Positions 8,614 through 11,828 are shown, counted from the first letter of the stretch. The stretch: DNA of 30,086 bases from Polyangiaceae bacterium (GCA_025453595.1 JALOQB010000032.1:1-30086); one strand, 5' to 3'. Numbers and translations: made by a program. Notes: generated by a model not told the origin, from the letters alone.

Positions 8614-8705
8614 TAGAAGCGCCGATGAACACGCGACTTCCCTGGATCTCAGCGGTCTTTGCCCTGCTGGTGGGCGCGAGCACGTAGGGGCAGACAGCGG
8701 CGCCT
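8614..8705. repeat. Left copy of an imperfect direct repeat of about 90 bp covering the MscS gene start plus about 11 nt upstream.
   Basis: 'ctagaagcgccgATGaacacgcgacttcc...' versus 'atagaggcgccgATGcacacgcgacttcc...' at 11737. Manual alignment gives about 64 of 88 identical positions, ungapped. Similarity is lost after about 90 nt. Confidence 0.6.
8625..8687 (+). pseudogene. Orphan 5' fragment of an MscS-family gene start (20 codons then a stop), left at the boundary of the inserted islet.
   Basis: ATG at 8625 encodes 'MNTRLPWISAVFALLVGAST*', which parallels the N-terminus 'MHTRLPRVSAAFALLISANAGAQ' of the intact MscS gene at 11750. The nucleotide identity is about 73% over about 88 nt without gaps. 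Confidence 0.45.
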
Positions 8706-8856
8706 TCGGCGCGGGCGCCGCGCCCCGCCCCGCAACCTCGGTGTTCTGGGTAGGACCGCCGCCACAGGAGCCGACTAGGTGGGTCAAGGCGCTGGTGCCG
8801 GATCAGGCCTAGGGCACCGAGGGACGCGTGTTGCAGGACCTTGTTCGGTCACGCTC

Positions 8857-9771
8857 TCAGGGGCAAGACCAACCAGAGCGGTCCTTGAGCCTCCCTTGCT
8901 TGCCGGTCGGTACGTGATGGAGATCTCCCGGCTCTCCCTGCCCCGGAGGAGCGCCATGTTGCGTCACATTGATGGGGTTGAGGCCGATCCTTTCGTGCAA
9001 CGTGGGGGCCTTCAAGTACACATCCCAGTGGTAGCCCCCTCCGGTGGCTGGCCGGGCCCACGCGTTCCCCTGAGCGTCCAGCCAGCAAGGCCGCCCAGAG
9101 TGCACCCCGCACACCCTGGTGGAGCGCCTCTCCCAGTATGGCGAAAGGCAGAAGGGGTGAGCACCAGGGCAGGGGGCGACGGGGAGACGACCGTCCATCC
9201 GAATCGAAAACGGAGCCTCGACATGGCGAGGCCTTGCGATCCACCGGACTGCCCTCGGGGATCGCCCCTGCAAGGCCGCGTAAAGCCTCCACCGGGTCAC
9301 CTCGAGCAGTTCCACACCACCAGAAGAACGATCGCAAGAATTACGCCCTTCTATGTGGTTGCACAGAACAGCGACGTCCTCCTGATGTGCCTGCAGCAAG
9401 GCAGCGCCGAGGACCTCGGTGACGATGTTTGTCCAGTCTTTGCCAAGCCCGCTCCATGCCGCAAGCTCACGCACCCCCCAGACTCTCCCCGCCACAGAAA
9501 CCTTGGAGAGCACACGCCCGCGCCTTGCAAACTCACGGAGCCTGTCGACAGCTTGCTTGAGGTTGCGGTCAGCGCCGTTGAGGTCAGGTCCCTCGGTCCG
9601 GTACACCTCGTCGAAGTAAGCAAAATCTCCCACCTTCGAGAGCAAGACAAAGCCAGGCAACCGAAGGAGCAAGTTGGCATCCTCGACCCGCTGGAGGAGG
9701 CATTTTTTTGCCATGTCACCCGAGAGTCCAGGTTGGCGGAAGAACCCAGGGTCAAGGACCAGCAGGGTCAC
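8857..9771 (-). CDS. Hypothetical protein, translationally coupled partner of the islet ATPase. Function unknown, and the distal half is of doubtful coding quality.
   Basis: GTG start at 9771 overlaps the ATPase TGA (GTGA). The first about 165 aa (MTLLVLDPGFF...VAVLCNHIEGRNSCDRS) have normal composition and lower GC. The remaining about 140 codons are W/C/H/R/P-rich and could be non-coding read-through or a frameshifted tail. Confidence 0.4.
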   Translation of the reverse strand: MTLLVLDPGFFRQPGLSGDMAKKCLLQRVEDANLLLRLPGFVLLSKVGDFAYFDEVYRTEGPDLNGADRNLKQAVDRLREFARRGRVLSKVSVAGRVWGVRELAAWSGLGKDWTNIVTEVLGAALLQAHQEDVAVLCNHIEGRNSCDRSSGGVELLEVTRWRLYAALQGRSPRAVRWIARPRHVEAPFSIRMDGRLPVAPCPGAHPFCLSPYWERRSTRVCGVHSGRPCWLDAQGNAWARPATGGGYHWDVYLKAPTLHERIGLNPINVTQHGAPPGQGEPGDLHHVPTGKQGRLKDRSGWSCP

Positions 9772-11411
9772 GGCTTCGAGCCCGCGAGACTGGCCGGGTG
9801 GGGAGGCTCTCCGTCATCATCGGGCTCCTCACCTTCGTCGTGGATTACTCCCGAAGAATTCCCGGGACTTCCCACATTTTTACGCTTATCCAGCCCGGCA
9901 TCGTAGATGTCACGCTCTTCGTCCGTAGCGACATCCATGAAGTCGCTCGGCCACCGCTCGACATCGCCGCTGGAAGTCAGGCTAGAGATATCGATGCGAG
10001 ATCGTCCCTTGGCGTCCTGAGACACCTCGACGATGCGGACGTTCTCGCGGAGCCATGTCTCCATCTCGCTCCCCTCGGGAACGCGAGCGATCAAGCCACG
10101 TAGCCTGCGGACCAGGTGATCGCTGTGGGTCTCGACGATGAGGTTTCGCCCGCTCCGAGCCAGCGCGACAAACCAGTGGGCCAGCGAGGACTGGAGCTTA
10201 GGATGGACGTGAGCCTCGGGCTCCTCGATGGCGCCATGAGAGAATTTCTGGAGCTGGGCAAGGAACGCGACACGTTCAAGGTTGACCTTAGAGCTGTCAA
10301 AACGCCTGGGGTCGAGCAAGAGCCCGTACTCGATCACCGGGAGCAGGTAGGTCAATCCGCGGCCGACATGCTGAAAATTGGACTTACCAAAGAGGAGTTG
10401 AAAACCGAGATCCCTCTCGGCGATGGAGACCTTACCATGCACCCCCATCGACGCTAGCACGTCGTTGACGGCCCCCTCGAGCGGCTGGGCACGGAGCGAA
10501 GGAAGCTCTGTGATCTTGCCGCCTTCGACCTGGAGAGGGGGTAGGTAGTGAACCCTGTCGTTACGGCGAGCATGCAGGAGTTGCGCAGCATACTGGCCTG
10601 AGACCCCGAGGGTCTCGGGCGGGGTAGTCGCGGCACGATAGAGGAGCGGCGGCGGCTCGCGAAGAGAGCTGAGGTAGCCAAAGTCTCGAAGCACAGCGCG
10701 GAGATCTTCCAGAGGCTGGACAAAGAGGAAAGTCCATAGATGAAGCTGGAGCCTTACCCCTGCGCGAGGGCCGATCTTCATCGAACGCTTGAGCGAGAGG
10801 ACAGGGAGAAAGTGATCCCATTCGATATCCACCTCGCTAAAGTAGTTTCCGTTCAAGAGAGCATGATCTCGAGGATTCTCCTTGGAAATTTTCGCCTTGT
10901 AGCCCCGGGAACAAAGTTCAGAGCTGAGCGATCTGAGAGCAACAGAGGCGAGGAAAGCTCGCTTCTTTTCTTGCCTGAATTGGAGGCGAATTTCGGTCTG
11001 CACCTTGGCTTTGGGAAGGTCGGATGAAAAGCCATCTAGCCCCCCTTCTTTTAGTTGAATTTTCGATGTTTTTCCGATCGCCTCGCGGGCCTTTGCGAGA
11101 TCGATTTCTGATTCAAATGTCAAGCAGATGGCAGGTCCCTCGATGGTCTCGCTATCTTCGTCCCCACCAGGCCACCCGGAGGTGAGTTCCTGCAAACTGA
11201 TGGCCTCGACGGCGCCCTCAAGGTGGAGAGAAACTTCGGTGCGTGGGTAGTCGAGGGTTTGTTTGAGGAGCAAGAGAGCCTGGACCAGGGAACTCTTGCC
11301 GCTATTATTGCGGCCCACCAGCACGGTGAGAGGAGCCAGGTTGAGGTGTGTGCGAGCTTCATAGCTTTTGAAACGTTCGACCTCGATTGAAAGGAGTCGG
11401 GCGCGCGCCAT
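9768..11411 (-). CDS. ABC-type AAA_21/AAA_15-family ATPase, as in the OLD, Septu PtuA, PARIS AriA and Gabija GajA N-terminal families. The C-terminal tail may be DUF3696-like.
   Basis: ATG at 11411. Walker A is 'LTVLVGRNNSGKSSLVQALLLL'. The signature/Q-loop-like region is 'GRGLTYLLPVIEYGLLLD'. Walker B and the H-loop are 'AIEEPEAHVHPKLQSSLA...NLIVETHSDHLV'. The C-terminal 'VERWPSDFMD' is recalled from memory as resembling the end of DUF3696. GC is low, about 50%. Confidence 0.8.
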   Translation of the reverse strand: MARARLLSIEVERFKSYEARTHLNLAPLTVLVGRNNSGKSSLVQALLLLKQTLDYPRTEVSLHLEGAVEAISLQELTSGWPGGDEDSETIEGPAICLTFESEIDLAKAREAIGKTSKIQLKEGGLDGFSSDLPKAKVQTEIRLQFRQEKKRAFLASVALRSLSSELCSRGYKAKISKENPRDHALLNGNYFSEVDIEWDHFLPVLSLKRSMKIGPRAGVRLQLHLWTFLFVQPLEDLRAVLRDFGYLSSLREPPPLLYRAATTPPETLGVSGQYAAQLLHARRNDRVHYLPPLQVEGGKITELPSLRAQPLEGAVNDVLASMGVHGKVSIAERDLGFQLLFGKSNFQHVGRGLTYLLPVIEYGLLLDPRRFDSSKVNLERVAFLAQLQKFSHGAIEEPEAHVHPKLQSSLAHWFVALARSGRNLIVETHSDHLVRRLRGLIARVPEGSEMETWLRENVRIVEVSQDAKGRSRIDISSLTSSGDVERWPSDFMDVATDEERDIYDAGLDKRKNVGSPGNSSGVIHDEGEEPDDDGEPPHPASLAGSKP

Positions 11412-11423
11412 AGTTTCATCGGT

Positions 11424-11450
11424 AGTCTACCTTTGTCGCTTGGTTGTCAA
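11424..11450 (-). promoter_or_regulatory. Putative sigma70-like promoter for the islet ATPase operon (TTGACA-N15-TAGACT).
   Basis: On the minus strand 'TTGACAaccaagcgacaaaggTAGACTaccgatgaaactATG' has a perfect -35 and a 4/6 -10. It sits in an AT-rich stretch ending about 12 nt before the start codon, which implies a very short leader. Confidence 0.3.
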
Positions 11451-11736
11451 TGCTCTTTTGATCGAGCCACAGCCGGCATAGTCATTTGATCGAAAGCGCC
11501 GGAGCACGATGACAGCGCCCGCAATGAGGACAGGCAGACACGCTCGCGGCCGAGGCCGCCCTGGAGGGCGAGCAGCTATCCAGGCGGAGGCCTACCCGTT
11601 CGCGGGGTCCGAAGCCCGGAACGCAGAGTTCGAGACCCGGAAGCTGGGGGCCGGCGCGTGAGCAGGATTGCCGGCAGACCTTCCAGGGCTCGATGCGCAA
11701 CGCGGACCGGTGGGTGAAGCTGCCGGCGTGACGAGG

Positions 11737-11828
11737 TATAGAGGCGCCGATGCACACGCGACTTCCACGGGTCTCTGCAGCCTTCGCCTTGCTGATAAGC
11801 GCGAACGCAGGCGCGCAGCCGGCGGGGT
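11737..11828. repeat. Right copy of the imperfect direct repeat, forming the start of the intact MscS gene.
   Basis: See the left copy at 8614-8705. Confidence 0.6.

Follow-up and report, generated by a model that had tools for sequence, protein, structure and literature searches.

An islet bracketed by diverged copies of a channel gene start

The DNA analyzed here (the window) is an entire 30,086-bp contig of a metagenome-assembled genome (MAG) of a Polyangiaceae bacterium (GCA_025453595.1, JALOQB010000032.1:1-30086). Between a gene for a LysR-family regulator and a gene for an MscS-family channel, the window holds an islet of 2.87 kb (positions 8816 to 11682) with two overlapping minus-strand genes, which encode an ATPase and a partner protein, ORF2 (Table 1). 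The islet is bracketed by a diverged direct repeat of the start of the MscS gene. The left copy is an orphan, while the right copy opens the functional gene, whose full-length protein has the MS_channel beta-domain (PF00924). Each copy is adjoined by a fragment of a further gene, which we call X: a 5′ piece of X lies directly next to the left copy, and the last 16 codons of X directly next to the right one. In the relative L001, the MscS of which is 77% identical to that of the window, X is an intact gene of 274 amino acids (aa), starting MCCFSRP..., between LysR and MscS. X belongs to a large, uncharacterized family (>4000 matches of ~270 aa with an N-terminus of the form MCCFSRPV...ILPLPVP; L001:8990-9814), for which there is no Pfam or NCBIfam model.

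The initial annotation of this stretch had described a duplication of roughly 90 bp, aligned without gaps from 8614 and 11737. The repeat exists, but its right-hand coordinates were 2 nucleotides (nt) off: in the register 8614 to 11737, the ungapped identity is just 33/92 (36%). We dropped that register for an offset of 3125, in which ATG faces ATG (8625 and 11750), 8614 is paired with 11739, and 65 of 89 positions (73%) are identical without gaps. A repeat search of the window returned the same pair (8614-8711 and 11739-11836, 73%, spacing 3125). The repeat also withstands the comparison with shuffled sequence that had been proposed as a check: the Smith-Waterman score of 8380-8900 against 11420-12000 is 54, compared to a mean of 14.2 ± 1.9 and a maximum of 24 in 500 dinucleotide shuffles (z ~20). 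No other place in the window scores >15 against the right copy. Both ATG positions and both peptides that had been quoted are correct, as is the stop after 20 codons in the left copy (TAG at 8685-8687). If indels are allowed, the repeat is longer than first noted and extends over ~200 nt (8614-8815 versus 11739-~11925) at a gapped identity of 125/186 (67.2%), and in the extended part WVKALVPD of the left copy parallels WVVELVPD of the right copy.

The left copy is inactivated in several places. Its orphan 20-codon open reading frame (ORF; 8625-8687) is closed by a TGG>TAG change at codon 21, and downstream there are a 5-nt insertion near 8720-8730 and a CAG>TAG change at 8810-8812. The fragment ends before any MS_channel domain. 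Its peptide corresponds to the N-terminus of P0123 (MNTRLPWISAAFALLAGASAWGQTAAPSARAPRP...SWVKALVPDQ), which is an MscS protein 77% identical to the resident one and has no stops there. The adjoining 5′ fragment of X, which is matched by the X-family hidden Markov model (HMM) with E = 4e-23, carries a frameshift due to a 1-nt deletion in a C run near 8586-8590. The orphan MscS fragment is a by-product without evident function, and the MscS gene remains intact. In annotation, the 20-codon ORF and the X fragment are best treated as pseudogene remnants.

Resident and foreign sequence at the locus

The contigs that are key to the comparison came from a protein search and an exact-protein look-up; a scan of genome contigs returned relatives at 77% or lower only (L001 and L002), and a scan of metagenome contigs returned distant MscS genes only. 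Four contigs, conspecific with the window, represent the resident type, hereafter R (L009 and L010, reached via the MscS protein P0121, 97% identical, and L014 and L015, reached via a cluster member). Another Polyangiaceae lineage, hereafter D, is represented by L012, L013, L016, and L017. Of these, L012 encodes P0123 and overlaps L013 at 99.8%, and L013, L016, and L017 have an intact X followed by a P0123-type MscS gene. The upstream sequence of a further contig, L011, gave no useful alignment.

The segment with the islet is absent from the conspecifics. L009 matches the window at 99.2% on the left (1-3982 versus window 4447-8428) and at 97.4% on the right (4116-10613 versus window 11702-18199; ~99% from 11750 on), and the 3321 nt of window 8429-11749 correspond to 181 nt in L009. 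L010, L014, and L015 are alike, with flanks 97 to 99% identical. The empty site that had been predicted in the initial annotation (LysR, about 250 bp, and then MscS) was thus found in four conspecific contigs, in which the two start codons are 232 nt apart. The 181 nt of L009 are a decayed 3′ remnant of X, and the last 67 nt of them are only 67% identical to the window, although the flanks differ by ~1%. In-place decay cannot give such a contrast, and, therefore, one of the two alleles comes from a diverged lineage.

All three pieces that flank the islet are of D type. On the left, 8412-8613 is 94.1% identical to L013 633-835, and the coding part of the X 5′ fragment is 94.7 to 95.3% identical to the D contigs, 80% identical to L001, and missing from L009, L010, L014, and L015. 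The left repeat copy is 86.6 to 87.9% identical to L013 1499-1695 and 91.0% identical to L016, compared to 62.9% for L009, and it has D-specific indels in common with the D contigs. To the right of the islet, 11683-11749 matches L013 1443-1509 at 63 of 67 positions (94%), L016 at 92.5%, and L009 at 67%. Relative to R, the D-type pieces are 63 to 67% identical or absent. Judged by these identities, the left copy is the orthologue of the MscS start from lineage D and not a decayed resident copy. Because it is 88 to 91% identical to D versus 67% to the resident copy, the divergence between the two copies is mainly inter-lineage. The suggestion in the initial annotation that the islet came in by recombination along with a gene start is therefore supported, except that this start is orthologous rather than paralogous. 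As in a mosaic import, the segment is absent from near-identical conspecifics, and the pieces adjoining the cargo are D-like (88 to 95%).

The right copy, in contrast, is a hybrid, 94.7% identical to L009 and 72% identical to D. Bases +4 to +190 of the MscS gene are 96.3% identical to L009 and 70% identical to L013, and the entire gene (11750-13027) is 98.3% identical to L009 at the nucleotide level and 81% identical to its D-lineage counterpart. The right switch lies inside the ATG (11750-11752), the last D-specific bases being 11747-11749 and the first R-specific base being 11753. On the left, LysR and the intergenic region up to 8411 are 99 to 100% identical to L009 and 83 to 84% identical to D, so that the switch from R to D falls between ~8411 and 8443; homology to L013 begins at 8412, and L009 here equals the window up to 8428 with a sole difference at 8413. 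Stretches that are conserved across the lineages lie at both switches: GCCCGCAAGCCG in the LysR-X intergenic region and TATAGAG...ATG.ACACGCGACTTCC at the MscS start.

Given in L013 coordinates for the D pieces and in window coordinates for the islet, the order is R, D 633-835, D 1499-1695, islet 8816-11682, D 1443-1512, R. The D pieces that bracket the islet overlap by 14 nt (TAGARGCGCCGATG). The internal junctions read GACGCCGTGCTAGAAGCGCCG (X to MscS), CAGGCCTAGGGCACCGAGGGACG (MscS to islet), and TGCCGGCAGACCTTCCAGGGCTCG (islet to X), and there is no microhomology at the X to MscS junction (8613/8614).

The motif at 8412-8428 sits in the dyad CGCTGC-N9-GCAGCG. It is also a common breakpoint: the deletion in L009 sets in directly behind it, and it marks both the onset of homology to L013 and the switch of the window from R to D. 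The motif may be a LysR operator and, as such, the sole stretch of identity that survived between the lineages.

Two further readings of the borders were rejected. An X remnant in the noncoding right end of the islet (11412-11682), the third at this locus and more diverged than the others, would point to serial transfers, but alignments of this stretch did not exceed shuffled sequence (z ~1 or below). HMM and tblastn searches gave no significant X match upstream of ~11660, and the comparison of 11412-11682 with the L009 remnant gave no significant similarity (z ~1 or below). The left junction was also considered as similar to the intergenic region of L002, until the alignment showed the L002 upstream sequence to be a C-terminal remnant of X. 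Loss or truncation of X has occurred independently in L002, in L009, and in the window.

Table 1 Features of the LysR-MscS interval, in window coordinates (R, resident type; D, other lineage)
Feature	Coordinates	Strand	Basis or remark
LysR-family regulator, start MDLNHIV at 8377, resident sequence	7469..8377	-	Pfam HTH_1, LysR_substrate
LysR-X intergenic region with conserved motif GCCCGCAAGCCGCAGCG (8412-8428)	8378..8442		Left R-to-D switch inside
X 5′ fragment (pseudogene), MLASMCCFCRPVKVV...PLPV/PGTPEDAV, ~61 codons	8431..8613	+	D-type
Left repeat copy, D-type MscS 5′ fragment, -11 to +186	8614..8815	+	Alignments to L013, L016, and right copy
Islet left noncoding end, 41 nt, from MscS fragment to ORF2 stop	8816..8856		D homology ends at 8815-8817; GC 63%
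ORF2, intact full-length partner, 304 aa	8857..9771	-	Homologues follow ATPase genes; no family match
AAA_15/AAA_21 (OLD-ABC type) ATPase, 547 aa	9768..11411	-	Pfam, PADLOC
Islet right noncoding end, upstream of ATPase gene	11412..11682		No significant similarity to X or L009 remnant
D-type X end (last 16 codons, ...GSMRNADRWVKLPA, stop 11729-11731) and 18-nt spacer to MscS ATG	11683..11749	+	tblastn with X homologues
Right repeat copy, start of functional MscS gene	11739..11925	+	D-type to -1, R-type from +4
Intact MscS-family channel gene, 425 aa, resident type	11750..13027	+	Pfam MS_channel_2nd 1.8e-16

Origin of the islet-bearing allele

The initial annotation had read the repeat as the mark of an insertion into, or recombination at, the 5′ end of the channel gene. 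The empty conspecific sites confirm that the insertion is genuine; a simple insertion into the 5′ end of MscS, however, does not fit, given the involvement of X. We propose that 8412-11752 is a foreign allele of the LysR-MscS slot, which was probably recombined from a D-like relative into an R genome and carried the islet together with D host DNA on both sides. We infer the direction and order of events, and the origin of the duplication, as follows. An internal part of X would have been deleted (836-1498 in L013 coordinates), and the segment from the end of X to the start of MscS (1443-1695) would have been duplicated in tandem with the islet at the join point. This duplication could have arisen by single-crossover (Campbell-type) insertion of a circle composed of the islet and a short arm of host homology or, alternatively, by duplication-insertion between sister chromosomes. 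Entry into the R genome would have occurred by crossovers at the LysR-operator-like motif (~8412-8428) and in the ribosome-binding and start region of MscS. After entry, the right copy would be the resident gene start, and the left copy would be the donor gene start, already inactivated. The stops and the indel of the left copy were probably acquired in the donor lineage, once the islet had cut this copy off.

Several points weigh against this proposal. The stretches of identity between D and R at the presumed crossovers are short (15 to 17 nt at the left one and 9 + 3 + 13 nt around the start codon at the right one) and would serve RecA-type recombination poorly if the donor was no closer to R than L013 and L016 are. 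The X-deletion junction at 8613/8614 is free of microhomology and requires a separate event, and it lies only 11 to 14 nt from the homologous position of the right D-to-R switch, which our model treats as a coincidence. A contig that shares these junctions and could be the donor was not found, the ATPase is known from the window contig only, and L013, L016, and L017 are without the islet. The short allele of L009 may be ancestral or may be a secondary replacement. Finally, the contig is metagenome-assembled.

The alternatives fare less well. Under an old local duplication, the islet would have entered the 5′ end of the resident MscS gene and duplicated its target, and the left copy would have decayed in place to ~70%; that neither copy has a closer match in the window than the other copy and that the left copy has stops and an indel would agree with this. 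Such a history is nevertheless highly improbable, as the left copy is 88 to 91% identical to the D gene versus 63 to 67% to the resident type, and the right copy is likewise preceded by 67 nt of foreign type. Because conspecifics with flanks 97 to 99% identical do not have the left copy, there was no time for a decay of ~30%, and the old event with decay of the left copy that the initial annotation had entertained is contradicted. A target-site duplication of the transposition type was also rejected. Transposition typically leaves short repeats (2 to 15 bp) that are initially identical and involves a transposase and terminal inverted repeats, while the repeat here is ~200 nt long and 67 to 73% identical, and neither a transposase or integrase (Pfam and PADLOC) nor terminal inverted repeats were found in the islet region. 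Orphan gene ends are also typical of integrase-borne elements, the attL/attR repeats of which rebuild the end of the target gene. A site-specific integration into the 5′ end of MscS that supplied a replacement gene start would be in line with the 14-nt near-identical core TAGARGCGCCGATG at both ends, and, as in att islands, a direct repeat of a gene end has an orphan on one side and an intact gene on the other. We regard this as very unlikely, since there is no integrase, excisionase, or tRNA (the islet genes are an ATPase and its partner, and the neighbors are LysR and MscS), the X fragment on the left is left unexplained, and homologous modules elsewhere occupy unrelated sites without MscS fragments or such repeats. 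Moreover, the orphan copy is foreign and the rebuilt gene is resident from +4, with only its 67-nt leader foreign, which is the reverse of what att sites would give.

A chimera made by the metagenome assembler from co-occurring R and D strains would agree with the window being a MAG contig that mixes two lineages. It is quite unlikely: the identical stretches shared at the R/D switches are at most 17 nt long, below usual assembly k-mers; the three internal junctions (X to MscS, MscS to islet, and islet to X) are not joins of R and D; and the D-type pieces differ from every D contig by 5 to 12% and contain inactivating mutations. Direct Campbell-type integration into R, which we rank second after import as a block, would involve a circle (the islet and D 1443-1695) and a single crossover at the MscS ATG of an allele that already had the X deletion. 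It explains why 11683-11752 and 8614-8815 form a circular permutation of one contiguous D segment with a 14-nt overlap, it predicts the right hybrid copy exactly, and the co-extensive repeats of L016, described below, are expected of such an integration. It also predicts R-type sequence to the left of the left ATG, however, where we see the D-like TAGAAGCGCCG and an X fragment of 94 to 95% D type; the known R alleles have neither a TAGAAGCGCCG-like sequence nor an X fragment there, and the crossover homology at the ATG would be 3 nt only. We therefore consider it unlikely.

Campbell-type insertion-duplication, in which a circle with a host fragment integrates by a single crossover, is known as a laboratory method and from plasmid integration. 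The window resembles it in that the cargo (8816-11682) is bracketed by direct repeats of one contiguous host segment (L013 1499-1695 and 1443-1512) and the repeats are hybrids of donor and recipient sequence, and in L016 the repeats are exactly co-extensive. It differs in that neither a circular form nor a replicon is known, an additional deletion cuts the left repeat short, and the repeats are 130 to 250 nt long and 10 to 33% diverged. Homology-facilitated illegitimate recombination, by which foreign DNA is acquired through flanking homology (PMC3240628), has been invoked for type VI secretion system (T6SS) loci of Vibrio (PMC5361080). As in acquisition by flanking homology, the window has mobility-less cargo at a homologous locus, adhering donor sequence, and a sharp switch to the recipient, and, as in the illegitimate variant, at least one of its junctions (8613/8614) is illegitimate. 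Unlike in such acquisitions, there is a target duplication around the cargo rather than deletion alone, and the anchors are very short. At Rhs, contact-dependent inhibition (CDI), and T6SS effector-immunity loci, displacement leaves orphan gene fragments (PMC5361080). The left copy is likewise a diverged, truncated part of another strain's allele beside new cargo, but the orphans at those loci are 3′ toxin ends and immunity genes that are perhaps still useful, whereas the one here is the inactivated, signal-peptide-like 5′ end of a channel gene.

The finding is a well-resolved scar of horizontal acquisition, which is ordinary in kind but unusually readable. Its breakpoints can be read to the base, since both the donor lineage and a conspecific empty site are at hand, and it offers a clean natural example of a small defense-like gene pair without a mobility gene that was fixed in a genome. 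It also illustrates that direct repeats around an islet can be diverged without being old, since here the divergence dates the split of the lineages and not the insertion.

The islet genes and the variable LysR-MscS slot

By its composition the islet is foreign, with a GC content of 58 to 63% over its two genes (58% in the ATPase gene, and down to 50% in 300-nt windows) against 70 to 72% in the flanks. Scans for tRNA and Rfam families gave no match in the islet region, and promoter and terminator scans gave nothing informative. The ATPase matches AAA_15 (1.5e-22) and AAA_21 (1.3e-17) in Pfam, and its best PADLOC match is NsnB (9e-48, profile positions 4 to 336 of 345). Its nearest homologue is 57% identical, and its cluster holds the window contig only. 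In all three homologous loci that were checked (L007, L008, and L019), a homologue of ORF2 abuts or overlaps the 3′ end of the ATPase gene, with identities of 34 to 51% (~50% over the full length in L007 and L008 and 34% in L019, a Sorangium chromosome). The pair, which is intact in the window, thus recurs as a pair in unrelated contexts; the initial annotation had proposed to look for it next to MscS paralogue fragments elsewhere, and the homologous modules have no MscS fragments beside them.

ORF2 has no match in Pfam, PADLOC, or NCBIfam. Its AlphaFold2 model is of high confidence (pLDDT 96.5) but has no structural neighbor in the PDB, and Foldseek returned weak FEN/PIN-like matches (E 0.03 to 0.8, probability 0.33 or lower). 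Eight residues are invariant (R191, L196, W213, W238, H248, D250, N268, and H286). The conserved H248, D250, N268, and H286 are compatible with a nuclease. The family is small, with 96 clusters at 50% identity in a set of 1.8 billion representatives, and ORF2 was not found in plasmid and phage collections. The islet is probably a defense module of an ATPase and its partner, and ORF2 is a candidate for an uncharacterized defense effector.

Defense modules that combine an OLD-ABC ATPase with an effector include Menshen (NsnB-NsnC), Septu, PARIS, and Gabija; in Menshen, the operon also contains NsnA with ParB/DUF262, and NsnC has an inactive PIN-like domain at its N-terminus and a nuclease domain at its C-terminus (PMC12065111). 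The islet resembles Menshen in the fit of its ATPase to the NsnB profile, in the overlapping gene for a partner of ~300 aa that comes next, and in being a compact module found in varied contexts. Unlike Menshen, it has no NsnA (ParB/DUF262) and no third gene, and it is flanked by pseudogene fragments. ORF2 fits none of the profiles of NsnC, PtuB, AriB, and GajB, and no solved structure is a neighbor of it.

The LysR-X-MscS interval is a variable slot in this clade, because the window, L016, and L013 differ there. L016 (3885-8029) has a 3.9-kb insertion (4015-7899) between LysR and X, with unrelated ORFs that have no Pfam match. The insertion is bracketed by co-extensive 130-nt direct repeats of 90% identity, which contain the start of LysR, the intergenic region, and the start of X, so that the start of LysR is present as an orphan to the right of the insertion, and the start of X as an orphan to its left. 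The scar is like that of the window, but the cargo is different. L013 has yet another upstream neighbor, and its homology to the window starts at the same motif. We conjecture, tentatively and with more doubt than confidence, that islets without integrases move between Polyangiaceae as cargo with a short piece of the prior host, and re-enter the LysR-X-MscS slot via the operator motif and the start region of MscS, which are tiny conserved stretches. Diverged duplications and orphan gene starts would remain after every move, and the slot would be a recombination hotspot for defense-like genes. If so, the window and L016 would have arisen independently and with different cargo. At this locus, it is the recurrent slot and the uncharacterized gene pair that might reward further study.

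Next to LysR, the window encodes a protein of 945 aa that is a bacterial counterpart of the major vault protein and homologous to it (4539-7376, minus strand; MVP_shoulder 1e-23 and Vault repeats), and its position beside LysR is kept in both the R and D lineages. Away from the islet, window 901-3052 (~2.1 kb) is a second strain-variable spot, at which L014 has ~370 nt with a DDE_3 transposase fragment, and window 1-901, which contains a Uma2-like ORF, is merely 87% identical to L014. In addition, window 4052-4301 differs from L010 at 31 of 250 nt, compared to 0 to 6 differences per 250-nt bin elsewhere, and this patch may be another small recombination tract.

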